Assembly (NCBI GenBank): GCA_012295275.1
Contig: CM022673.1
Location: 14,322,001-14,386,000 of the forward strand
Source: Chrysomallon squamiferum
Taxonomy: Eukaryota > Animalia > Mollusca
DNA: 64,000 bases
Reading direction: 5' to 3'
Shown: positions 3,461-64,000 of the stretch, piece after piece
Layout: each line of letters starts with the position of its first letter
Numbering within the stretch: position 1 is the stretch's first letter
The notes under the pieces: model-generated
Seen by the model: only the letters and a program-made list of their open reading frames with translations
What the model was told of the DNA's origin: nothing
Database searches by the model: none
Translations under genes and position numbers: made by a program

Positions 3461-4384
3461 TTAAAATGGATACCAACGACACGACTTCAAGTTGTCTCTT
3501 TTAACAAGCCTCTGGTTAATATTCAAATCTGTTATTTGTCTCATTTCTTCGTCTGTCAGTGTAAAGTCACAGACGTCAAAGTTTTCCTTGATGCGCGAAA
3601 CAGTGCAGGATTTGACCATCACTGCGCAGCCCCGCTGTAACGTCCACTGAATAACAACTTGAGCCGCGGTTTTCGAATGTTTCCTCGATATTCTTGTAAT
3701 GACGTCATCCTCAAGAATATTGAAAGTCTTTTCTCCTTGATAATTGGCTACGCCTTTGGTGAGTGGAGAATATGACGTCACAGAGATACCTTGGCGATGG
3801 CAGAATGTCATCAGCTGTGTGTTGGTCAGGTACGGACTCATTTCGATCTGCAGATTGGCGGGTTTGTACTTCAGATCGTCTGCCTCTAGAAGCCTGGTTA
3901 CTTGTTCTAAGTTAAAGTTGGATATTCCTATTGCACGTGCTTTTCCGCAGTCCACGAGTTTCTCCATCGCTCGCCAGGTGTCAAGATAATCAGTATCTTC
4001 AAACACAACACCACGTGGAGTTTTTCTGAGCGACAGTGGCCAGTGCATTAAGTACAAATCAACGTAACTCGTCTGAAGCTGTTCCAGCGACTCCCTCATG
4101 CCCACCGGTACCTCCTCTGGGTCGTGGAAGTAGTTGGCGAGTTTTGTAGTAATAAAAACATCTCCTCTGTCTATCACTCCATCTTCTATCTTCTCTTTAA
4201 GCGCACTCCCGACATCACCTTCACTTTCGTACACCCACGCAGTGTCGATATGACGATAACCGACGTCAACAGCAGACTTGACTGCGTCGTACATGCCTGG
4301 CAGACGATAGTTCCACGTGCCGAATCCCAACGCAGGCATCAAATGTCCGGAATTTAGTTTGATAGACGGAATCGAATTTGTCAT
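3461..4384 (-). CDS. Aldo-keto reductase (AKR1-like), 307 aa, single coding exon
   Basis: Full ORF with AKR motifs (MPALGFGTW, GYRHIDTA, LQTSYVDLYLMHWP, RAIGISNF, RIKENFDV). Catalytic tetrad D47/Y52/K81/H114 is intact. Confidence 0.95.
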   Translation of the reverse strand: MTNSIPSIKLNSGHLMPALGFGTWNYRLPGMYDAVKSAVDVGYRHIDTAWVYESEGDVGSALKEKIEDGVIDRGDVFITTKLANYFHDPEEVPVGMRESLEQLQTSYVDLYLMHWPLSLRKTPRGVVFEDTDYLDTWRAMEKLVDCGKARAIGISNFNLEQVTRLLEADDLKYKPANLQIEMSPYLTNTQLMTFCHRQGISVTSYSPLTKGVANYQGEKTFNILEDDVITRISRKHSKTAAQVVIQWTLQRGCAVMVKSCTVSRIKENFDVCDFTLTDEEMRQITDLNINQRLVKRDNLKSCRWYPF

Positions 4385-4399
4385 TTTATGGAAATTTTA

Positions 4400-12849: not shown

Positions 12850-13104
12850 AATTACTGTCATTTTGTACAAAGACTCGATAGATATAACTGTCCGTTTGTA
12901 CAAAGACTAGACAGAGATAACTGTCCGTTTGTACAAAGACTAGATAGAGATAACTGTCCGTTTGTACAAAGACTAGATAGAGATAACTGTCCGTTTGTAC
13001 AAAGACTAGATAGAGATAACTACGTTTGTTCGGATTCTAGATACTGATAACTCCGTTTGTACAAAAACTAGATACAGATAACTGCCGATTTCTATAAAGA
13101 CTAG
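12850..13104. repeat. 33-bp minisatellite, ~7 copies
   Basis: Unit tttgtacaaagactagatagagataactgtccg. Confidence 0.92.
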
Positions 13105-13850
13105 AATATTACATTTGTTTTGTCAGTTTGTGTTATTAGTAAGATGTAATTTACATTATTCACTTAGTCATTTCATATTCCACTCAGTTGTCCAGAAATG
13201 TTTTTTTTCCAGTTCCAAACACTGTTCACTAGATTCAGCACGTTGTTAAACTAAATTACAAAAATCTAAAATTCGCACCTAACATTGCTCACTGTTGACA
13301 TGATGTTAAATATTAATTTGTTCAACACAGCCAGGTCGTTGTTGTAGTTCTCACGTGATAACGTAGTACACATTGAAAGAATTGTCTGGCACGTTTTAGC
13401 TTTGGGGAGTATAGAAAATCACTTTAAGCTGAAAAGTGTTATTAAAAATTAATCTAAACAACAGGAACAAGAGAAGAAGAAGTAAAAAAGTGAATCTGAA
13501 ATTCTATCTCCCTATCAAATGGCTAGATTAAAACATTCACATGAGTAATGTAATTCACTGGAAATTAAAAAAACAACAACAAAAAAACATGATAGATTTA
13601 CTTAATTTTTTTTTTTTTTTTTTTATCGATGTCATTAGAGTATTGTAAAGGAAACTTTCTGCCGACACAGAGCTGTCGTTCTTTTATCTAAAAGAAAAAG
13701 GTTTCACTGAAGATTATGAAAGTATATTTTCGTCTTTGAATATTAAGTCACAAGTGAAACCCTTCATCACTGAGTACTGACATAACAGGCGAGCTTTACT
13801 TTACTGAATTACACAAACTGCAGAGGGCGCTCTCATGACAATGAAGAGCT

Positions 13851-14008
13851 TAAGTCAAACTCATCTGCGCAGTGCATTCACTCGTAAGTCAAACTCATCT
13901 GCGCAGTGCATTCACTCGTAAGTCAAACTCATCTGCGCAGTGCATTCACTCGTAAGAGAACTATTCTGCGCAGTGCATTCACTCGTAAGTCAAACTATTC
14001 TGCACAGT
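13851..14008. repeat. 34-bp minisatellite, ~4.5 copies
   Basis: Unit taagtcaaactcatctgcgcagtgcattcactcg. Confidence 0.92.
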
Positions 14009-18239: not shown

Positions 18240-18620
18240 GTAACCTCAGTGACATCACTAAGGATATATCGTGACTTACAATTAACATCAGTGACGTTGC
18301 GTAGGATATATTGTGACTTACAAATGTAGGACTTTTAAACTCAGTGACGTCGCGAAGGATAAATTTTGACTTACACAGTAGTATTTTTAACCTTAGTGAC
18401 GTCACGTAGGATATACTGTGACTTACAATCGTCGCACTTTTATACTCAGTCACGTTGTGTCGGATTTATCGTAATTGAAAACTGTAATCGTTTAACCTTA
18501 GTGACGTCATACAGGCGATTACGAATCAAGTCTTACAACTATATTAATTTTAATCTCAGTAATGTCAAGACAGATGTAATTTTCGGATTGCAGTAGTTTT
18601 ATTCTTAAGCTCAGTAACGA
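18240..18620. repeat. Degenerate 40-57-bp tandem repeat containing TGACGTCA-type cores
   Basis: Recurring aac(c)tcagtgacgtc...aggata...tgacttaca. Confidence 0.75.
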
Positions 18621-25869: not shown

Positions 25870-26208
25870 TCACACATAAAACTCCTGCTCTTTCCTCACT
25901 TTGAGTTTAATGGCGTCAGCAGGAAGAAGGTTTTCCAGCGTCTCTGTGGAATCAACGAGTCTCTTCTCGTCGTCCATGCGTCTGTTCCTCGACAGACGCG
26001 CCAAAGGGTTCGACTTGCTCCGGCACTGCACGAAGATGTACACGAGACACACGATGATGACGACGCCGCCGATGACGAGGATGATGGACAGTTTGATTTC
26101 CGACAGAAGGTGTTTGTTTCTGATCAACAGATGGTGAAAGCGGGTAGCACCCGACAACACGTTCTGTGTTGCTTTCATGTCGTCGTCCATTTCGTTCGAT
26201 GAATACAT
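25870..26208 (-). CDS. Small single-pass membrane protein, 112 aa, C-terminal class II PDZ-binding motif (EFYV)
   Basis: Non-repetitive, GC-richer ORF. One hydrophobic helix (LSIILVIGGVVIIVCLVYIFV) is followed by a basic stretch (CRSKSNPLARLSRNRR). An in-frame TAA lies just upstream of the ATG, and an acceptor ttttaacag lies at 26240. Confidence 0.75.
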   Translation of the reverse strand: MYSSNEMDDDMKATQNVLSGATRFHHLLIRNKHLLSEIKLSIILVIGGVVIIVCLVYIFVQCRSKSNPLARLSRNRRMDDEKRLVDSTETLENLLPADAIKLKVRKEQEFYV

Positions 26209-27989
26209 TGATGTTTACCTCACCTGTATTCCCGAGTGTCTGTTAAAAATGTGCTTAATGACAAACGAGAACAAACGTTGTGTAAATTGAACTCACTGTA
26301 ATGGATCCATTGGTTTGGTGGCACTTAGAGGCGCCTTGTTTCGTGCTGCATTTTGTCAGTAATATGAAAATGAATGTATGGATAATTTCTGCTGCAGATT
26401 TCACAGTTTGCCGCTACTTTATTACGCTAATCACTTTTCCATTACTCTACGCGATGCCGTTAAAGCAGCACGTTCCAAAACCTTTGAGAATTGAAACAAA
26501 AATCAAAATATAAATCCCCTGTCGTCTGGTTCTAACACGTTTGTCCGTCTGCTGTTTCAGTACACACGTTCGGTCAGCGGAGGAAGGATTGCTGATTTGC
26601 TTGACTTTAAAAGCCGACCAATCGCCGTTTTCAATCACGAATATGATGCATAATTTACATTTATTCCCAGACTCCACTTTCAACTGCCATCAGTTTAATG
26701 GCGCGGTTTCTGTAGCTGTTTGTAGAGCAGGATCGTTACCGATGCAGAAAACGTTGAGAAACACGTAGTTGCCACATGTGGCCAGCGCAGACCTCGTTTC
26801 TCACGTGTCTATGTGCAGTTTAAAACACACAGGATGTCTGCAAACAAATAAAATCTTTATAAAATAAATGTTTATCACGTCTGATTCGTGCTCTCTATAT
26901 GAGAATTCTGCATCCGATCAAAAAAAAATTTGAGCCTAGAGCTGAATATTAATTCGACAAATAATGCGTTTTCCTACAAACACTGGAAAATAATATCAGT
27001 AGTTTAGATTATCGTCACAGGTGTACTGCTGTTGTTATGTCACGCGTTAACGTTTTTTTTACGCGAGTAGACAATATCCCTGTCCACGTGGTAAAATATA
27101 TATTACTTGAATTAGATAAAAAGATAATACTGCAATCGCTTAGTAAATATTTATCACTTAAATTATTTATACAGATACTGTTATGGCCCCCATGGTAAAA
27201 TATATATTTTGAATTAAATGTACAGCTATTATTACAGTCGCATATCAAAATATATTATTTGAATTAGATATATGAATAATAAATAGTACAGACACATGGT
27301 AAAATGAGATAGTATTACCGTTACATGGATACGTGTATGAATGTATATCTAATAATAAGATTACAACTGATAAGTGATAATTCGTTTTACACGAATACAA
27401 TTGAAAAATACTATTGTTGTGACTTGAATTTATAAAGAAAACATTACTCTAAAGAGGATTATATCGTGGCTCGTACTTCTGTTATTATAAATATTTTATA
27501 AAAACTGGGGCAGATGGAGAAGAGGTAATCGATGAGACTTACAGTGACACAACGTGATCGCTTGTCTGTTTATCCGTTTGTCTGTCAGCACACCACAACA
27601 ATAGTCAATCTTCTTAAACGTTTAAACCTTGTCTTCAATTCCGAACAGAGAATAAAATACACTCCGACATCTCATTTCATTCCCAATCGATTTTGCAATC
27701 ACCTACGTTATTTCAAAAACCGACGTTAGTTATACTTTTTCATTTGTAAAACGCTTAACATTGATTTTTGTTTTCTGACATTACGTACAGAAAAATAAAA
27801 GTAAAAAATGATTTATGCATTAACACAGCGCCCACTATTTGTCTCTTCATTAAGCAGAAATATAAAAATCATTGTTCCAAGAACGAATAATGACTCATAA
27901 CCACTGAAATATTTCTTTTAAAAATCCATTGCTCCTCTCAGACCAAACACATCGGTTTTGCCTGCTTGAAACACACACACGTTTCGTTG

Positions 27990-35917: not shown

Positions 35918-38900
35918 GTTTGTAAACGTGTTTTTCTCGTGTTCTTTGGTGATGTCAGATCGTTTCGTTATGAAAGAATATCATATTATTTTATCTCTTC
36001 AATTGTTACACGTTTAATTTACAGCGTGCTATGGTATAGTACAAGTTCCTACTGGACCATGGTATTGTAGAAAGTGTGAGAGTCAAGAAAGACAGGCTAG
36101 AGTGGTAAGTTGTACCACTACTTACCTGTTGTCGTTGAATCGTATTGTCGTACAAATATCCATGTTGCATAGTTAATATTTTCATACAACGAACGGTATC
36201 TGAAGCACAGCTAAATATTTTATTTATTCATAATCTACTAATATCAACATTGTTTGATTGTCCATTTTAAAAATGTCTTTTATCTGGTGATTAATTTTAC
36301 AGAAAAAAAGATGAAATATTTGAGATTTTTTACAATATTTTATACATCATTTTTCATATCAGTTTCAGTTTATAAATCTCTATGTCATCAGGTAATTTTC
36401 ATTTAATACTAAAATTGTGCAGGTTTTGTTTCTATTAAACAGTCTTGTGAAATAGAATCAGAAATGTGCTCCTCTTTGCATAATTGTTAGTGTTAAAATT
36501 GTATTTGATTTTATTATTTTTATAAAAATAATTCTTTATATAATATATATATTACTCATTTTTTCCATTTTGATAGAAATGTGAACTTTGTCCTCAAAAA
36601 GATGGTGCATTAAAACGAACAGACACTGGAGGTTTGTTTATATGTATTTAAAATTTAATATTAATATTAATCAAATCAAAACTTTTATATATTATTTAAC
36701 ATTAGTATTAACAAAAAATAAATTTTCATATCAGGTAACAATAACTGTCATTTGCTATATTTGTCTAGCATATTAAAAGGAGAATATTACAAATATCTAA
36801 ATAAATAATCTTACTGAAGAAAAAAAAATGTAGTTGATTACTGTCACTAGCTTATGCAGAATTAAACATTTCAGTTTGACTGTATAATTTATGTTGTTTC
36901 CTTTTCATTTATGTAGGTAATGATAATGTACAAGTAGGATTTCACAAGACATTTTATGACATTAAAAACTAACAAGTAATTTACTCTTTTTATTTAATTA
37001 ATGTTTCTTGTAGGCTGGTGCCATGTTGTATGTGCTTTGTTTATTCCTGAAGCTTGGTTTGCCAATGTTCAAACGATGGAACCGATTGTGCTGAAGAATG
37101 TTCCTGGAGATCGGTTTAATAAGGTGATGAATAATGAGAATGTTTATTATAACAAAATCCATTAGAAAGATTGAGTTGAGTTGTTTTAAAATAATATAAA
37201 ACCTATATTAGATTGGATTCTCCATAGTTCATGTTTAATACACATACCTTCATATGTCATATTTTGAAGCTGTTTATAAAGCAATAACTTTAAACAAATA
37301 TAGTTTAAATTTTAAAAAATCATCAAAACAAATGTTTCTCCAGCATTCTGAGATGTTTGAAAATTGATATGATATTTTTGTTTTATTTTACACAAAGTCG
37401 TACATAGAAAAACTAATATTATTTTTTAACAGGTTTGTTACATTTGTGAGGAACATGGGCGTGAGACCAAGGCCACCAGTGGTTCGTGTATGACATGTAA
37501 CAAGAATGGATGTAAACAGAACTTTCATGTTACATGGTTAGTTACTTGTTACATTTGTAGTTTTGCTGAGCTGTTGTAATTTATAACAATGCATTGGCTG
37601 TCATGTAAAGTGGTTGCACATTGTTATACAGCAGGGAAAACAAGCTTGTAAAATAAAATTTGAAATTTGAAATTTCTATGCAATATTAATAAAATTATTT
37701 TTATTTAAATTTAATTATTATTATTTTATTATTTTTTATTTTTTATAAAATTGGTTTGCTCCATAATTTAAAATTTATAATTACATATGCAATGTGCATA
37801 AAATTATTTTCATTTAAATTTAAAAAAATTTATTATTTTTATTTTTGACTACTTTATGCATCTGATAACTAACATTAAGGATTATATTAAAAATAATATA
37901 TTTCATTTTCTATAGTGCACAAAGTCAGGGTTTACTTTGTGAAGAAGCTGGTAACTATGGTGACAATGTCAAATACTGTGGTTATTGTGTTTACCACTAC
38001 AAGAAATTGGTAAGTTTATTATGTTTAAACAGCTTGCCTTTCTGGACATTTATTGAACAATAATTTCAGAACAGCTCATATTCAGTCTGAAGGAATTGTT
38101 ACCTACATAGGCAAACATAGAAAACTTTTAAATATTTGTATTTAAATGGTTCACAAATAAATATTACTGACTTGTTTAGACCTGACTTTGAGTGATCTTC
38201 TTTTAAAAAAATTATATTTTATTGTGTGCTGAAATTACTTTTGTTAACATAAAATTGATTGTAACTGAGAATATGTAATTATCAACAATTACTTTTACAT
38301 TTAACATTCTCTTTGTTCTTCAGTATGAGTTTCTATGTATATTTACATGATTTATTGATTTATTTACTTTTTAATTTTTTCAGAAGAAAGACGCTAACAT
38401 TAAAATAATTCCAGCATTTAAACCAATACCTTCGGAAAATGCTACCCCTGATTCCACGCCGGAGAAACACACATCATCACGGTCTGACAGAGAGGAAAAG
38501 GTTTGTACTCACTTTATTAACATTAAACTGGTGAGGAAATATATGTTTTCCTCAAAACATATATAAACTGTCCCTCACAGCACATATAGCCCACAGGATG
38601 ACCAGACTAGCTGTGTTTATTAATTTTGTTTTATACAGTGGTAGATGACAGTGGTAATGTCTCGTGCTTTAATTTCAGTATCATGTAACTGTTAGTTGAG
38701 AAATTGTACACGTCTTTACTTTACACTCACTATCAAGTTTTAATTTAACTTAATCTTTAAGGGGACACACTAGGCAAAAAATGACAATATTTGAAATAAA
38801 ATAGTTCAGAAAATGTACATAAAAAATATAATTTTTCAGATATATGTTTCATATTTTAAAAACTATTTGGGCTAGAGTTTTCAAATTTGGAATATATATA

Positions 38901-41900
38901 ATTTAAAATATGAATTAAAAGCAATATTTTTTTTTTTTTAAATATTTCTTTTGAAGTATGTAAACAAAGACAAATTTCTTTCTTCTATGTTGTAGAAGTA
39001 CATGTCTGTTATGAACCCCAGCAGTTTGAATGATATTTATATATTGGTTTTGGTTGGAGAGGTTCATGAAATGGAGTACTGTAATATTTAAAAAAAGCCA
39101 AAAATAAAAGTTATCATTTGTCATAAAAAAAAATAAACTAGTACTAGTTTCAGTTCTGTAACAGAAAAAATTGCAATTTTTTGTTTTTGCCACATGTGTT
39201 CCTTGGACACATTTATGTCCATATGTCCATTCATTTGTAATGTATTTTGAAATAACATAGCAATTATTAAGTTATGTTTTTTTATAAATTTTTATTATAA
39301 ATGTCATTTCACCCAGAATGTGAGAATGAAGAACTCTGATGTAATGGACCCATCTCTGTGTGGGAGGACGAATATTGGTTCCTGTAGTGGTCAGCGGCCG
39401 CAGATGACCCCACCAGCCATTCTCAACAACAGTGCTAATTCTGACTCATCTCTGAAGTCTCCAGACTTCGCAGGCTTCACAGAAGCCGACATTAAAAATC
39501 ACATTACAAATGGTGTTGCTACTGAAACAAAATTTGACACTACTGTGACATCATCATCATCATCAACATTATCAGCTGTTTCAACAGCAACTGCCACTTC
39601 AACTCTGTCCAGTATATCAGCTGCAGAGCAAAAGTTTATTTTTGATGCTCGTTTTAAAGTGACGGAACCTAACAGCAGCAGTATGTTTACAAAGGTGGAA
39701 AAGTCGGTCAGTCCACACAGTAGTGCTAGTGACCGATCAAGTCCGAACCACGATGAGAACACTTCGTTCGCTGGTTCTTACGACACCTTCGCCACCAATG
39801 GACCAACAGCATCATCAGAAGACACAGGCACCACAAACAGCAAAACTAATGATTCAGAATTATACGGTTCTAAGCGTCAACGGTCAAGGTATTTATCTGA
39901 GCAAATACCTCAATTTATTTGCCATGCAGATCAGTACATAACTTAAGTGTGAAAATAAAGATAGTATTCTGTTACATATTGTTGATCAAACCATGATGAA
40001 ATATTTCAGTTTTCATAATTATTGTTACAGATGTCTTTACTTAAACCTGCCTTTGTATAAAAAGTGTTTGTTAGAGATCTCTGTTAAATTGTATTTGAAT
40101 TTATAAAAACAGTTTAATTAATATTAGATATCTGTTCATAAACTGCATTTGAGTTCATAAAAACAATTAAATTTAGCTAAACTATATACAAGTTTATAAC
40201 AAACAGTTTAATGGTTGTTAGAGATCTGTGTGTGTTGTAAAACTGTATTTGAGTTTATAAAAATAATTTAATTATTGTTACATATCTCTGTACACAGTTA
40301 AACCTGTATATGAGTTTATAAAAACAATTCAGTAGTTATTACTCTGTACATTGTTAAACCTGCATTTGACTTTTTATAAACAGTTTAACTGTTACAGATC
40401 TTTGTACATAATTAAACCTGTATTTCAGTCTATAAAAACAGGTTTAATTATTGTTGCACATCTCTGTACATAGCTAAACATGTATTTGAGTACAGTTTAA
40501 TTGTTGTTACAGATCTCAGGACACTGTGGATAAGAAGAAGGCAAAGCGAGGAAAGCAGATGCAGGCGTCTGCAGCAAAAGTGAAATCTGGGAAGGACAGT
40601 TCAGGGAAGACAGTTCTAACTCTGGGTGCAAAGAAACACACACAGAAGAGAAAGAACGGAGCAGCAAACAGTTCCGTTCAGTAAGTAACTACACTGTCAG
40701 TGGTTAGTTTTACACTTCTGTTCAGTAAGTAACTACACTGTCAGTGGTTAGTTTTACACTTCTGTTCAGTAAGTAACTACACTGTCAGTGGTTAGTTTTA
40801 CACTTCCATTCAGTAAGTAACTACACTGTCAGTGGTTAGTTTTACACTTCCGTTCAGTAAGTAACTACACTGTCAGTGGTTAGTTTTACACTTCCGTTCA
40901 GTAAGTAACTACACTGTCAGTGGTTAGTTTTACACTTCTGTTCAGTAAGTAATTGTCAGTGGTTAGTTTTACACTTCTGTTCAGTAAGTAATTGTCAGTG
41001 GTTAGTTTTACACTTCTGTTCAGTAAGTAATTGTCAGTGGTTAGTTTTACACTTCTGTTCAGTACACTTCTGTTCAGTAAGTAACTGTCAGTGGTTAGTT
41101 TTGTTCAGTAAGTTTTACACTTCTGTTCAGTAAGTAACTGTCAGTGATTAGTTTTACACTTCTGTTCAGTAAGTAACTGTCAGTGGTTAGTTTTACACTT
41201 CTGTTCAGTAAGTAATTGTCAGTGATTAGTTTTACACTTCTGTTCAGTAAGTAATTGTCAGTGGTTAATTCTGTTCAGTGTAATTGTTGGTTATTTTACA
41301 CTTCTGTTCAGTGTCAGTGGTTAGTTAGTTTTATTTTACTTCTGTTCAGTAAGTAACTGTCAGTGGTTAGTTTTACACTTCTGTTCAGTAAGTAATTGTC
41401 AGTGGTTAGTTTACACTTCTGTTCAGTAAGTAACTACACTCAGTGGTTAGTTTTACACTTCTGTTCAGTAAGTAACTACACTGTCAGTGGTTGGTTTTAC
41501 ACTTCTGTTCAGTAAATAATTGTCAGTGATTAGTTTTACACTTCTGTTCAGTAAGTAATTGTCAGTGGTTAGTTTTACACTTCTGTTCAGTAAGTAATTG
41601 TCAGTGATTAGTTTTACACTTCTGTTCAGTAAGTATCTACACTGTCAGGGTTAGTTTTACACTTCTGTTCAGTAAGTAATTGTCAGTGATTAGTTTTACA
41701 CTTCTGTTCAGTAAGTATCTACACTGTCAGTGGTTAGTTTTACACTTCTGTTCAGTAAGTAATTGTCAGTGATTAGTTTTACACTTCTGTTCAGTAAGTA
41801 ATTGTCAGTGGTTAGTTTTACACTTCTGTTCAGTAAGTAACTGTCAGTGGTTAGTTTTACACTTCTGTTCAGTAAGTAATTGTCAGTGATTAGTTTTACA

Positions 41901-44900
41901 CTTCTGTTTAGTAAGTAATTTTCAGTGATTAGTTTTACACTTCTGTTCAGTAAGTAATTGTCTTCTGTTCAGTAAGTAACTGTCAGTGGTTAGTTTTACA
42001 CTTCTGTTCAGTAAGTAACTGTCAGTGATTAGTTTTACACTTCTGTTTAGTAAGTAATTTTCAGTGATTAGTTTTACACTTCTGTTCAGTAAGTAATTGT
42101 CAGTGGTTAGTTTTATACTTCTGTTCAGTAAGTAACTGTCAGTGGTTAGTTTTACACTTCTGTTCAGTAAGTAATTGTCAGTGGTTAGTTTACACTTCTG
42201 TTCAGTAAGTAACTACACTCAGTGGTTAGTTTTACACTTCTGTTCAGTAAGTCAACTGTTCAGTAAGTAATTGTGTCAGTGGTTAGTTTTACACTTCTGT
42301 ACACAGTTTTACAGTCAGTGTGGTTAGTTTTACACTTCTGTTCAGTAAATAATTGTCAGTGATTAGTTTTACACTTCTGTTCAGTAACTAATTGTCAGTG
42401 GTTAGTTTTACACTTCTGTTCAGTAAGTAATTGTCAGTGATTAGTTTTACACTTCTGTTCAGTAAGTATCTACACTGTCAGGGTTAGTTTTACACTTCTG
42501 TTCAGTAAGTAATTGTCAGTGATTAGTTTTACACTTCTGTTCAGTAAGTATCTACACTGTCAGTGATTAGTTTTACACTTCTGTTCAGTAAGTAATTGTC
42601 AGTGGTTAGTTTTACACTTCTGTTCAGTAAGTAACTGTCAGTGGTTAGTTTTACACTTCTGTTCAGTAAGTAATTGTCAGTGGTTAGTTTTATACTTCTG
42701 TTCAGTAAGTAACTGTCAGTGGTTAGTTTTACACTTCTGTTCTGTAAGTAATTGTCAGTGGTTAGTTTTACACTTCTGTTCAGTAAGTAACTACACTCAG
42801 TGGTTGGTTTTACACTTCTGTTCAGTAAATAATTGTCAGTGATTAGTTTTACACTTCTGTTCAGTAACTAATTGTCAGTGGTTAGTTTTACACTTCTGTT
42901 CAGTAAGTAATTGTCAGTGATTAGTTTTACACTTCTGTTCAGTAAGTATCTACACTGTCAGGGTTAGTTTTACACTTCTGTTCAGTAAGTAATTGTCAGT
43001 GATTAGTTTTACACTTCTGTTCAGTAAGTATCTACACTGTCAGTGGTTAGTTTTACACTTCTGTTCAGTAAGTAATTGTCAGTGATTAGTTTTACACTTC
43101 TGTTCAGTAAGTAATTGTCAGTGGTTAGTTTTACACTTCTGTTCAGTAAGTAACTGTCAGTGGTTAGTTTTACACTTCTGTTCAGTAAGTAACTGTCAGT
43201 GATTAGTTTTACACTTCTGTTCAGTAAGTAAGTTTTACACTTCTGTTCAGTAAGTAATTGTCAGTGGTTAGTTTTACACTTCTGTTCAGTAAGTAACTGT
43301 CAGTGGTTAGTTTTACACTTCTGTTCAGTAAGTAACTGTCAGTGATTAGTTTTACACTTCTGTTCAGTAAGTAATTGTCAGTGGTTAGTTTTACACTTCT
43401 GTTCAGTAAGTAATTGTCAGTGGTTAGTTTTACACTTCTGTTCAGTAAGTAACTGTCAGTGATTAGTTTTACAGTTCTGTTCAGTAAGTAATTACACTGT
43501 CAGTGATTAGTTTTACAGTTCTGTTCAGTAAGTAATTACACTGTCAGTGATTAGTTTTACACTTCTGTTCAGTAACTAATTGTCAGTGGTTAGTTTTACA
43601 CTTCTGTTCAGTAAGTAATTGTCAGTGATTAGTTTTACACTTCTGTTCAGTAAGTAATTGTCAGTGATTAGTTTTACACTTTTGTTCAGTAAGTAATTGT
43701 CAGTGATTAGTTTACACTTCTGTTCACTAGATGTCATATTAGTATGTGTAATATCAGTATATATAACATCTGTGTGCAATATACATACATACAGTATCAG
43801 TATGGGTAATATTTATATACATAATAACAGTATATGTAATTTCACTATATTTAATACTGGTAGTTCTGTAATGAGTTTTGTCTGTATGGCAGATCTGTTC
43901 TTTGAGTGTGTTCTTGTACAGTGATTTCACATTCCAACCAGTGCATCAAATACTGCTTTTACTTGTTACGCTTAAATTTTAAAAATAATGTTTTTGTTAC
44001 AGACCTACAAGTTTAAGTAGTACCAGTGTGTTCGGTGGGTCACCCTATTTCCAAAGTCTCACAGCTCCTGGTCCAGTCTCTCTCTCCACTCAGGGTAAGT
44101 GTGATACTGTACATCCTCTCTGCATGTAAGGAATGATGTGTGTGTTACCTCTGTCTGAGTGTAAAGAGTGATGTGTGTTATCTCTCTCTCTGTTTAACAA
44201 AAGGTTGAAGAACTTGTCATTCTCTGTTCTTTCTCCGTCCATAAAATAAAATATTTGAAATTATTCTCTTTTTTTTTTTTGTCTCTGTAGACTATGATTT
44301 ATTTATTTATATATGTGACAGGTTCTACAATGACATCATCATCCAGGGTGGTGTCTGGAGCGGGGGATGCCAGTAACACGGGCGAGACAAATGATGTTGT
44401 TAATGGTATCAGCAGGTTTGTTTGTCCACCCAAAATCTTCCCCTCACAGCAGAAACCAGCGGATTCTAACACAGGGTAAAATAAAATAAATTTTTATTTT
44501 TTATTTTTATTAATTCAAAAATGTGTAATGGAAATATTTCACACAAATCTTAATAGATACAGCTTTTAAGTTAAACTATTTAATTTAAGATTTTGGTAAA
44601 TGTTACTGGGACTAATTTGTATAATGTGTTTATTTTGTTTCTTTGGGTATTACTGTGGACAGTTCATATTATGTCAGTAGGAAGATATATATAAAAAATT
44701 GCTGTTAATGAATGTCTCTTTGTGTGACAGTAGCAAGCATTATTAAGAACTAAGCTGCCATAATCACTCTATTTTATTTAATTCATATATCTACAAAAAA
44801 AAAAATCTTCAATTTTTTTTTTTATTTTCTTATTTTTTCAAAATAAATGTCCATTCATTTGTTGGTTTTGTTACACTGTTAGAGAACACACACACACATT

Positions 44901-47271
44901 GCTGTATTGACATGTGAAATATTTACTCAGTAATTCATTGTCTGTGTTTCCAGGTTTCCACAGACGATGGAGCAGTTGTTAGAGAGACAGTGGGAGCAAG
45001 GTTCTCAGTTTCTAATGGAACAAGGACAGCATTTTGACAGTAATTTTACTTTCACATCACAGTATTAGAATTTGATTCACAGACTATGTTGACTGTTAAC
45101 ATATAACAACTCATTATAGTTAAACTGTTATATATTAAACTGTTACAGTTAAACTATTATTATAATTTGTTTTACAATTAAATTGATGTGTTTGAGTGTG
45201 TGTATAAAGGAATAACAATTATGTACATTTTTACATGAATTACAATTAACTGTTATGTTTACAGTCAAACTGTGTAGTGAATTACATTTAAGTGTTATGT
45301 TTAGTTATACTATGTAGTGAATTACAGTTTATTTTTAAGTTTACAGTCAAACTGTCTAGTGAATTACAGTTAAGTGTTATGTTTATGGTCAAACTGTGTA
45401 GTGAATTACAGTTAAATGTTATGTTTACAGTCAGACTGTATTGAGTTACAGTTTATTGTTATGTTTACAGTCAAACTATAATGAATTACAGTTAAGTGTT
45501 ATGTTTACAGTTGCCTCTCTGTTGAACTGTTTAAATCAGCTGAAGAGTGAGAATCAGAAGTTAGAGGAGTATGTGAAAAACCTCACTGACCGGCGTGACC
45601 ACTTGCTGACCGTCAACGCTCGGCTATCTCTGCCTTTCTCCAACATCAACAACATCGTCAACACATCACTTCCTGACTCATCTGACCACAAGGTAGATTT
45701 AGTTTTTTTTATCATTTATTACTGGTTTTTAATTAAAGCAGAATAAAAGTGTTTAATTTTTTTACTTAAAACTGACATTAGTACATATTAATTTGTTATA
45801 AGAAAAAATATATAAATTTAGAAAGTTAATTTAGGTTAACCCTTTCCTTGCAATAAGGAGATAGGTCTGTTAATTTGCTGTTAATTGCAGAAAGCAGATT
45901 TACCCTCAGCCAGTATGTGTCCTGACAGCTTTGTTGATTTTGCCAGGAGATAATTTAATTACATACTGAAAGTTTTGAGAATGGTTTAATACAAATATTA
46001 CTGTAATTTCATTTTTGACACTGTCTTTGTTACAGTGTTTGAGACCATGAAGAAAAATAAAAGATAATTGTTGACAGTTAGAATTAAACTGATTATCAAC
46101 ACTGATATTTTTTGTTTTCTGCAGGATCCAAGCTGTCCCATTTTAAGTCCGGCCATAATTGACAGTGTCCCCAGTCCTGTAGGTTAGTGAACATTTCACT
46201 TAGAACTGTTTTACTTTCTCCTTTACTCATGTAAATAATACATTTTTTGAAAATCATTGAATTTTCATTCTTTCTTCTGTATTACTATATCAGTTAAAAT
46301 TATCAGATGGATGCAGGTACGTGTGTTTTCGTGTGTGAGTGTTTAGGTATATGTTTTTGTGTATACATTGTGTGTGTGTGTGTGTGACTAACAATTTTAT
46401 TTCATCCAGTCAGTAATTAAACTGAAATTCACTGAAATGATAATTTTTCACAACAGAAAACTGACTTTAGAAACTTGTAGATAAATTATTATTATTATTA
46501 TTATTAAACTTTGGTTCTTATGTGATGTTACAACTTATGTTTGCTGTTTCAGAGTCTGATTCTGTGAGTGTTTACTCACATTCTAAGATGTCCGACATCT
46601 CTCTCACTTCAGATTCCTCCGTCTCAACTAGGGTAAGATTTTCAAACTGTTTAATCATTTGGTAACGTGTTATGTTTAAAATTAACGTCAGTCTTCATGT
46701 GACGAATGGTGTAATAGACAGTTTTAATATTCCAGTTTGGTAAACTGTTTATTCAGACCTCACTTGACTGTTCTTTTTAACAGAAATTAATGTTGTGAAC
46801 TGAATTATATTTAATTAAAATACATTATTATTGAAAATGGTTTTAATTAATTAGCTTTTATAGAGTGCTTCCAGTCTCATTAAATGAAACTGCCTTTATA
46901 GACAAATGTAGCATATCTTTTCTAGATATATACACTCATATACACACAGATATAGATATAAATATAGATTTAAATGTAGTTATATCTATAGATATAGATA
47001 TATATAGACATATGTAGGTATAAATATAAATATAGATGTAATAGGTATATAGATACATGAATGGATAGATACAGATATATATAAACACAAAGAATTATTT
47101 TGATGATCTGTTTTTTTATCAGTTTTATTCTTTCTGTTTCAGGACCCTTCATCTCAAGTTTTGAGCTCCTCGACAAACTCTCCACTGACCAGTTCCCAGT
47201 TCTCATCTGGTCACTCTCTCACTAACAGTACAAGTGCTATCAGGGACACACAGACAAAAGACAAAACGTGA
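35809..47271 (+). CDS. MLLT10: AF10/AF17-family protein (PZP domain plus OM-LZ; DOT1L partner), 16 coding exons, 2190 nt, 729 aa
   Basis: Starts MKAMVGGCCVCSDERGWAENPLVYCDG and contains EQLLERQW followed by a leucine zipper. Phase-consistent GT-AG exons: 35809-35917, 36025-36104, 36577-36631, 37014-37123, 37433-37536, 37916-38009, 38384-38500, 39317-39888, 40513-40680, 44003-44094, 44322-44475, 44954-45039, 45511-45692, 46125-46182, 46553-46632, 47143-47271. Likely co-orthologous to MLLT10 and MLLT6. Confidence 0.93.
36025..36104 (+). CDS. MLLT10: AF10 exon 2
   Basis: ACYGIVQVPTGPWYCRKCESQERQARV. Confidence 0.95.
36577..36631 (+). CDS. MLLT10: AF10 exon 3 (Zn knuckle)
   Basis: KCELCPQKDGALKRTDTG. 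Confidence 0.95.
37014..37123 (+). CDS. MLLT10: AF10 exon 4
   Basis: GWCHVVCALFIPEAWFANVQTMEPIVLKNVPGDRFNK. Confidence 0.95.
37433..37536 (+). CDS. MLLT10: AF10 exon 5 (PHD2)
   Basis: VCYICEEHGRETKATSGSCMTCNKNGCKQNFHVT. Confidence 0.95.
37916..38009 (+). CDS. MLLT10: AF10 exon 6
   Basis: CAQSQGLLCEEAGNYGDNVKYCGYCVYHYKKL. Confidence 0.95.
38384..38500 (+). CDS. MLLT10: AF10 exon 7
   Basis: KKDANIKIIPAFKPIPSENATPDSTPEK...; phase 0-0; NAGNAG-type acceptor (cagaag). Confidence 0.85.
38761..39202. mobile_element. Decayed MITE-like element in AF10 intron 7
   Basis: Left end TTAA-ggggacacactaggcaaaaa versus right end tttttgccacatgtgttcc-tt: imperfect TIRs, with TTAA at one side. Confidence 0.4.
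39317..39888 (+). CDS. MLLT10: AF10 exon 8 (Ser/Thr-rich linker)
   Basis: Matches ORF 39320-39946; acceptor cccag, donor AG|GTATTT, phase 0-2. Confidence 0.85.
40010..40520 (+). repeat. Degenerate ~60-bp tandem repeat ending at the AF10 exon-9 acceptor
   Basis: About 8-9 copies of ttgttacagatctctgt...aaacctgtatttgagtttataaaaacagtttaatta. Confidence 0.8.
40513..40680 (+). CDS. MLLT10: AF10 exon 9 (basic, NLS-like)
   Basis: RSQDTVDKKKAKRGKQ...QKRKNGAANSSVQ; phase 2-2; donor CA|GTAAGT. Confidence 0.85.
40671..43730 (+). repeat. 39/44-bp minisatellite, ~75 copies, in AF10 intron 9
   Basis: Unit cttctgttcagtaagtaa(ctacac|t)tgtcagtg(g/a)ttagttttaca; begins inside the last ~10 nt of exon 9. Confidence 0.97.
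44003..44094 (+). CDS. MLLT10: AF10 exon 10
   Basis: PTSLSSTSVFGGSPYFQSLTAPGPVSLSTQ; phase 2-1; donor G|GTAAGT. Confidence 0.8.
44322..44475 (+). CDS. MLLT10: AF10 exon 11
   Basis: GSTMTSSSRVVSG...PADSNT; phase 1-2; an alternative same-phase donor lies after 44415. Confidence 0.75.
44954..45039 (+). CDS. MLLT10: AF10 exon 12 (octapeptide motif)
   Basis: FPQTMEQLLERQWEQGSQFLMEQGQHFD. Confidence 0.93.
45230..45512 (+). repeat. ~41-bp tandem repeat ending at the AF10 exon-13 acceptor
   Basis: About 7 copies of tgttatgtttacagtcaaactgtgtagtgaattacagttaag. Confidence 0.88.
45511..45692 (+). CDS. MLLT10: AF10 exon 13 (leucine zipper)
   Basis: IASLLNCLNQLKSENQKLEEYVKNLTDRRDHLLTVNARLSLPF. Confidence 0.92.
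46125..46182 (+). CDS. MLLT10: AF10 exon 14
   Basis: DPSCPILSPAIIDSVPSPV; strong acceptor, donor G|GTTAGT. Confidence 0.7.
46553..46632 (+). CDS. MLLT10: AF10 exon 15
   Basis: ESDSVSVYSHSKMSDISLTSDSSVSTR; donor |GTAAGA. Confidence 0.7.
47143..47271 (+). CDS. MLLT10: AF10 exon 16 (terminal)
   Basis: DPSSQVLSSST...QTKDKT*; TGA at 47269-47271. Confidence 0.7.
   Translation, partial: DPSSQVLSSSTNSPLTSSQFSSGHSLTNSTSAIRDTQTKDKT

Positions 47272-60189: not shown

Positions 60190-64000
<3,811 letters not shown>

Follow-up and report, generated by a model that had tools for sequence, protein, structure and literature searches.

Several minisatellites have been described that begin at or span an exon/intron boundary and thereby repeat a splice site within an intron. 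In intron 7 of human F7, the first unit of a 37-bp variable number tandem repeat (VNTR) spans the boundary, and the pseudo-sites behind it are described as functional sites that offer no competition to the authentic donor (Borensztajn et al. 2006, PMC1557585). In the minigenes of that report no downstream site was used while the first site was intact, i.e. the first of many donors was chosen, and exon skipping rose with the distance to the first working donor. In intron 18 of human ABCA7, a 25-bp VNTR that is about 12-427 units long takes in the donor of exon 18 (De Roeck et al. 2018, PMC5954066); according to that report, use of the donor in the second unit leads to a premature stop and nonsense-mediated mRNA decay (NMD), amounts to 2 ± 1% and is unaffected by VNTR size, and skipping of the next exon increases with array length. 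Here, we describe a repeat of this type in a gastropod. In a stretch of 64,000 nucleotides from Chrysomallon squamiferum (hereafter the window; assembly GCA_012295275.1, contig CM022673.1, positions 14,322,001 to 14,386,000 of the forward strand), intron 9 of a gene of the AF10 family holds a tandem array of 80 units, most of which carry a copy of the exon 9 donor. The assembled RNA is spliced at the first copy only, and we consider it likely that the array is a drifting, tolerated minisatellite and not a regulator.

By every feature tested, the AF10 array belongs to the known boundary-spanning kind, i.e. to the type of F7 intron 7 and of the amphioxus 'mirage' minisatellites. With F7 it shares a first unit that spans the boundary, a repeated donor of which only the first copy is used and a similar unit length; the two differ in unit number (5-9 in F7 and 80 in AF10), in host (a mammal and a gastropod) and in the evidence, which is mutagenesis for F7 and only assembled RNA for AF10. 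With the ABCA7 repeat, as published, it shares an array that begins at an exon donor, a kilobase length and the consequence of second-donor use, a stop and NMD (the latter as a prediction in AF10); the ABCA7 repeat differs in that it starts at the GT and not in the exon, can be longer, shows second-donor use and acts through its length on skipping of the next exon. The mirages of amphioxus (Adh3, BflGb6, BflGb9, troponin C and PGBD5) lie at 5' and 3' boundaries and are reported to leave splicing undisturbed (PMC3087553, PMC3902484). They are unstable in length. They share with AF10 an invertebrate host and the presence of several arrays per gene at both types of boundary (one donor-side and two acceptor-side arrays in AF10), and they differ in their 2-7 copies as opposed to 80 and in a cephalochordate as opposed to a mollusc host.

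Other donor-reiterating arrays named in the F7 report are those in CBS intron 13 (15-20 units), IFI6 (6-16) intron 2 (25 pseudo-sites), LMNB2 (lamin B2) and PDGF introns (PMC1557585). For CBS and 6-16, that report describes additional use of the two nearest pseudo-sites, whereas no such use is seen in AF10 at the level of contigs. The latent 5' splice sites discussed under suppression of splicing resemble the AF10 copies in that they are consensus intronic donors with an in-frame stop upstream and are normally unused, and in human cells heat shock and hypoxia are reported to activate them (PMC3510495); they differ in being a dispersed feature of introns with no tandem array, and the mechanism is proposed for mammals. 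A literature search by title returned no gastropod case of a boundary minisatellite, which is weak evidence of absence. A search for comparable human VNTRs at UPF3A and NOC4L yielded no relevant paper.

Results

The main mRNA uses the exon-adjacent donor

Eight of 11 listed public sequencing runs were examined (X1, X2, X3 and X5-X9), all as assembled contigs and with no raw reads. Spliced contigs were present in four of them, from two studies; X6 and X7 are recorded as RNA, and X8 and X9 are recorded as 'DNA?' but are spliced. All four join 40680 to 44003, at a contig depth of 5-19, and all four include exons 9 and 10. In X6 and X8, a single contig passes from exon 8 into exon 9, exits at 40680 and goes on into exon 10, and among the matches listed no contig of these two runs carries exon 9 onward into the intron. 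In X7 and X9, what precedes 44003 is the final part of exon 9, and there is no contig in which array sequence leads into 44003; neither run has cover at 43700-43746, and both are uninformative there. Of the two tests, the one from the 44003 side has the higher sensitivity, as every array donor would contribute to identical junction words. In total, these data show that the first, exon-adjacent donor is used in the main mRNA. The earlier note on this DNA had proposed a count of the junctions that end at 44003 and had named choice of the first of many equal donors as the alternative to decoy use; at contig level it is this alternative that the four runs match, as do the F7 minigenes (PMC1557585).

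Anatomy of the array

Cutting at the unit anchor gave 80 units between 40671 and about 43730, in place of the ~75 copies estimated before; 46 units are 39 bases and 12 are 44 bases long, and the remainder are truncated or carry insertions or deletions. Unit 1 starts 9-10 bases within exon 9, so that the terminal unit spans the real exon/intron boundary. The 18-base unit motif, allowing at most two mismatches, has 74 matches in the window, every one of them inside the array; 0.01 matches per shuffle arise by chance, and 74 were reached in none of 100 shuffles. The donor word TCA/GTAAGT (the slash marks the junction) is present in 66 of the 80 units (82%), the authentic donor included, and is absent from the rest of the window. 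The earlier note, which had nearly every unit keep CA/GTAAGT, was thus right about how widespread the donor is, and the count gives the exact share. It was also right that some exon-proximal units retain the spelling of the exon: TTCCG occurs in units 1, 5 and 6 only, with TTCCA in unit 4 and TTCTG ahead of an intact donor in 59 units. A second, weaker donor-like word, GTG/GTTAGT, is usual in each unit (41 copies) and is identical on its intron side to the real donors of exons 5 and 14.

Across the whole array there are 34 distinct unit types, together with exact higher-order repeats of 324 bases (41556/42869), 239 bases (42327/42807) and 177 bases. By analogy with the mirages (PMC3087553), these exact repeats and the block of long units at the exon edge fit ordinary tandem turnover and unequal exchange. 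Intron 9 is 3322 bases long compared with a median of 432 for the introns of the gene, and would be ~316 bases if the array were removed.

A recursive (ratchet) site is an acceptor AG that is immediately followed by a donor GT. In the unit, the AG and the GT share one G (CAGTAAGT), so that splicing at the AG would regenerate no GT, and a recursive-splicing array was rejected. An array of acceptors within the units was likewise rejected: the common CAG scores -2.4 on a matrix built from the 15 acceptors of the AF10 gene itself, compared with 1.1-13.0 for the real acceptors. A premature polyadenylation signal in the intron was rejected as well, a scan for AATAAA and ATTAAA having found neither in the array.

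The array is present in other DNA runs

In X1 and X2, contigs lead from intron 8 across exon 9 to unit 1, alongside many short array contigs of high depth, and a contig of X3 runs from the last bases of the array through exon 10. X1 does not differ from the window, which may have been built from it. Between the array and the 3' end of exon 10, X3 departs from the window by a 34-base insertion at 43889/43890 and by three listed substitutions, a different haplotype; X2 and X3 both differ from the window and are therefore likely to come from other individuals. In X1 and X2, the depth of array words relative to unique depth is 0.95-1.62 times the window copy count (eight records among the matches listed), a rough measure that gives no copy number, either for the array or for variation in allele length, and in which two of the eight records assume which letter differs. 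X5 yields short low-complexity matches only and covers neither exon 10 nor the array end. Because the edges of the array are found in three other DNA runs and its depth is near the window count, the data argue against an assembly expansion and for an array that is real DNA; they also hint that the true arrays may be somewhat longer than that of the window.

The host gene and the consequence of using a later donor

By its sequence matches, the host gene is a gastropod member of the AF10/AF17 (MLLT10/MLLT6) family with a predicted N-terminal PZP and a downstream octapeptide motif-leucine zipper (OM-LZ) region. Exon 1 matches the PZP structure 5DAG of human AF10 (E=3e-20), and the OM-LZ is divided between exons 12 and 13 (Table 1), where the earlier note had placed it. 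Pfam searches with five single exons gave no match above the curated cut-off, and the identity of the gene is therefore taken from the matches to PDB sequences. Among proteins of 334-2000 residues, the sole hit of exon 8 was an AF-17-like protein of the peltospirid gastropod Gigantopelta aegis (P0001). Of the 745 columns in the alignment of the 729-residue model with this protein, 537 are identical, those at the exon 9/10 junction among them; for exon 9 and exon 10, the identities are 43 of 56 and 29 of 31 residues, respectively.

The gene model has further features of its own. Predicted exon 7 (38384-38500, 39 residues) has no counterpart in P0001 and may be alternatively spliced, and the number given to exon 9 depends on it. 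In exon 11, the contigs skip an in-frame internal donor-like site at 44415 and use the donor 60 bases further, at 44475. The exon 12 donor (45039), inside the sequence coding for the OM-LZ, is the weakest of the 15 donors by U1 pairing (-1.9 kcal/mol) and yet is used in X7 and X9.

Translation confirms that reading past the first donor gives CAG TAA. Any downstream donor would consequently place a stop at 40682-40684 and lose the OM-LZ exons, and with donor 2, 692 bases would separate this stop from the last junction. Under the junction rule for NMD, the donor-2 product is a predicted NMD target. For human AF10, deletion of the OM-LZ is reported to abolish DOT1L binding (PMC8254283), which agrees with the function assigned to this region in the earlier note. 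That note had reasoned that decoy use would give either an NMD substrate or a PZP-only AF10; the conditional logic is sound, given the position of the stop and the loss of the OM-LZ, whereas actual use of a decoy was found in none of the four runs.

The copies equal the real donor in predicted U1 pairing and show no clear excess of conservation

The authentic donor matches the 5' splice-site consensus on its intron side (+1 to +6), but its exon side is TCA and not the MAG of that consensus (PMC1557585), so that the description of the repeated word as a consensus U1-binding site is correct for the intron side only. The energy of its duplex with U1 (-7.2 kcal/mol) is the median of the 15 donors of the gene; among the 493 GT sites that follow it in the array, 65 form a U1 duplex that is no weaker, and for six of these it is stronger. 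Local folding gives the first donor an unpaired probability of 0.31, and 68 copies average 0.27. No sign was found that structure conceals the copies while sparing the real donor, and the low folding z-score at 40640-40900 (-4.8) spans both. Given that U1 pairing is equal and that folding does not differ, position or exon context must decide which donor is used. Exon sequence that is rich in GAA and purines helps exon definition; exon 9 has 5.95 GAA per 100 bases and is 68% purine, and the array has no GAA and is 42% U. A 9-pair hairpin at the end of exon 9 (40654-40679), retained in the centroid structure, has its closing pair one base upstream of the real donor. The two common variant columns might pair in a hairpin, but no covariation between them was found in 44 units of 39 bases (Fisher p=0.53; units not independent).

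For conservation, the 79 later units, which are not independent of one another, were aligned to the common unit. GTAAGT is kept in 68 of the 79 and is tied 13th-15th among 34 hexamers. The six donor columns hold three variant alleles, all at +5, versus 19 over the other 33 columns, and substitutions are absent from five of the six donor columns and from 17 of the other 33 (one-sided p=0.16). There is no clear excess: the donor word is kept no better than the rest of the unit, and purifying selection on an alternative site is not supported.

Other arrays at splice sites of the gene

Two more arrays in AF10 touch a splice site, in both cases an acceptor (Table 1). The more degenerate of the two copies the exon 9 acceptor together with the first bases of exon 9, and we label it as older. 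At the other, the start of exon 13 is the continuation of the loose ends at 45039 in X7 and X9. A screen of 16-base junction words from all 30 splice sites found copies at two only, the intron 9 donor (72) and the intron 8 acceptor (4); it missed the array at the exon 13 acceptor because almost no exon sequence is copied there. The window contains six minisatellites (period of at least 20 and at least three copies), three of which lie inside AF10, and each of these three adjoins a splice site (chance 0.011, a rough post hoc estimate). Because boundary arrays recur in AF10, it is less likely that any one of them has a dedicated role in regulation.

Just past the exon 10 donor, a faint 35-base duplication (44095-44185) has GTAA in each copy and is perhaps a decayed donor-side repeat. 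The three minisatellites outside AF10 lie at 12854-13105, 13851-14008 and 18282-18508 (33, 34 and 53 bases, respectively); the 34-base repeat carries GTAAG words, with no adjoining coding exon recognized.

Table 1. Coordinates of the AF10 gene, its repeat arrays and the splice sites discussed (positions in the window)
Feature	Position	Strand	Basis or remark
AF10 coding span, 16-exon model, 729 residues	35809..47272	+	PZP and OM-LZ matches
Degenerate ~56-base array, about 8-9 units, 73% matches; copies exon 9 acceptor and first exon 9 bases	40013..40523	+	RNA uses last copy, 40513 (X6, X8)
AF10 exon 9, 168 bases, lysine-rich segment	40513..40680	+	Both ends from spliced contigs X6, X8
Exon-proximal block of donor array, six 44-base units	40671..40934	+	Unit cutting
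Authentic 5' splice site TCA/GTAAGT	40681..40686	+	Sole donor seen in use
In-frame TAA on read-through of first donor	40682..40684	+	Translation reads CAG TAA
Main block of donor array, 74 units, mostly 39 bases	40935..43730	+	Ends in partial unit without donor at 43717-43727
AF10 exon 10, acceptor at 44003	44003..44094	+	Spliced contigs X7, X9
Exon 12, octapeptide motif (OM) of DOT1L-binding region	44954..45039	+	phmmer to human AF10 6CKN/6JN2, E=5e-6
~42-base array, 6.7 units, 82% matches, ends at exon 13 acceptor	45236..45511	+	RNA uses last copy, 45511
Exon 13, leucine zipper of OM-LZ	45511..45692	+	phmmer to 6JN2, E=5e-7

Other features of the window

Elsewhere in the window, an uninterrupted frame of 311 codons on the minus strand (3461-4396) is aldo-keto reductase-like by eye; it is intronless and possibly a retrocopy. 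A short minus-strand frame (25870-26214) with one hydrophobic stretch resembles a small single-pass membrane protein, and plus-strand exons at 61472-64000, named alpha-tubulin-like by eye, are cut by the window end.

Discussion

Combining the RNA contigs with the sequence of the array and with the published cases, we suggest the following scenario: (i) slippage or unequal exchange may have duplicated a 44-base segment made up of 9-10 exon bases and about 35 intron bases, (ii) unit-level and block-level duplication would then have expanded the intron from about 316 to 3322 bases, the units more distant from the exon turning over to 39 bases, (iii) transition at either base of the CpG in the exon's TTCCG may have given the common TTCTG and the rare TTCCA, and (iv) the first donor would be chosen either by exon definition across the 168-base purine-rich exon or on a 5'-to-3' first-come basis as in F7. 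Alternatively to (iii), TTCTG may have come from an intron-side seed. A transcript that leaked to donor 2 or beyond would include the TAA at 40682 and is expected to be cleared by NMD; such removal would lower the cost of the leak and in that way allow the array to persist.

Some observations weigh against an array without any effect on splicing. Contigs drop rare variants, a depth of 5-19 is blind to use of a few percent, and NMD hides more, so that use at the level described for ABCA7 (~2%) would be invisible. Array words are present in the RNA runs X6 (~8-11%) and X8 (~1% of spliced-contig depth per copy), and these could be pre-mRNA, DNA carry-over, intron retention or decoy use, which are indistinguishable here. 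In CBS, IFI6 (6-16) and ABCA7, the nearest downstream copies are reported to be used at some level (PMC1557585, PMC5954066). Finally, none of the later units has a substitution in the GT or at +3, +4 or +6, which tends towards conservation without reaching significance. Weighing these points together with the uniform choice of 40680, we still favor the drifting, tolerated minisatellite.

An unlikely alternative is that the array modifies splicing by its length, a longer array weakening the definition of exon 9 or exon 10. Loss of exon 9 would be in frame and remove the lysine-rich segment of 56 residues, and loss of exon 10 (92 bases) would shift the frame, with NMD predicted. Such an effect has parallels in the next-exon skipping of ABCA7 (PMC5954066) and in the skipping that rose in F7 as the first working donor was moved further off (PMC1557585); moreover, arrays flank exon 9 on both sides, the length of the exon is a multiple of three, and the somewhat different depth ratios of X1 and X2 are compatible with length variation. 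However, contig depth gives no copy number, and both exons are included in all four spliced contigs. The same contigs bear on the dosage rheostat of the earlier note, in which regulated use of downstream donors would produce NMD substrates or a PZP-only AF10 of ~470 residues, and array length or stress would set the dosage of AF10/DOT1L. The stop and the loss of exons 12-13 do follow from the sequence, the 65 downstream sites are at least as complementary to U1 as the real donor, and there are precedents in the second-unit donor of ABCA7, with its premature stop and NMD (PMC5954066), and in the human latent donors that heat shock and hypoxia activate behind stops (PMC3510495). Nevertheless, we find this rheostat quite improbable: none of the four runs contains a decoy junction, the donor word has no excess conservation, the second-donor use reported for ABCA7 is low and independent of size, the F7 minigenes as described used no downstream site while the first was intact, and regulation of AF10 by NMD is absent from the literature titles found.

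It is very improbable that the array serves as a sink or landing strip for U1, in which at least 65 copies on the nascent RNA would bind U1 small nuclear ribonucleoprotein (snRNP) and either titrate the snRNP or guard the intron against premature cleavage. Many copies do pair with U1 as well as the average donor of the gene, but the array contains neither AATAAA nor ATTAAA to shield, and there is no selection signal on the donor word, which leaves this proposal of the earlier note unsupported. Moreover, U1 snRNP is abundant, and a single gene of modest expression would be unlikely to titrate it. That a short array was inflated by the assembler is scarcely credible. No record examined spans the array, so the exact number and order of units in its interior rest on the window sequence; against inflation stand the contigs that lead from exon 9 into unit 1 (X1, X2) and from the array end into exon 10 (X3), the differences of X2 and X3 from the window elsewhere, the depth ratios close to the window count and the variety of unit types.

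As a drifting, tolerated minisatellite, the AF10 array is a large invertebrate example of a repeat type that has already been described, and it is a trap for gene prediction. It shows that the site next to the exon is also selected, out of at least 66 equal donors, in a mollusc whose introns in this gene are short, and it provides a convenient natural substrate outside vertebrates for tests of first-come choice versus exon definition. Its importance would be greater only if allele length or stress shifts AF10 isoforms, given that AF10 feeds DOT1L and methylation of histone H3 lysine 79 (H3K79). In a broader and doubtful version of this idea, minisatellites of the snail lineage would be born preferentially at exon/intron junctions, and the donor array together with the acceptor array that flanks exon 9 on the other side would form a length- or stress-sensitive dial of AF10 splicing. 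If this is true, DOT1L-dependent H3K79 methylation would be tuned by the dial, either because exon 9 is lost in frame or because splicing leaks to a donor that brings in a stop.

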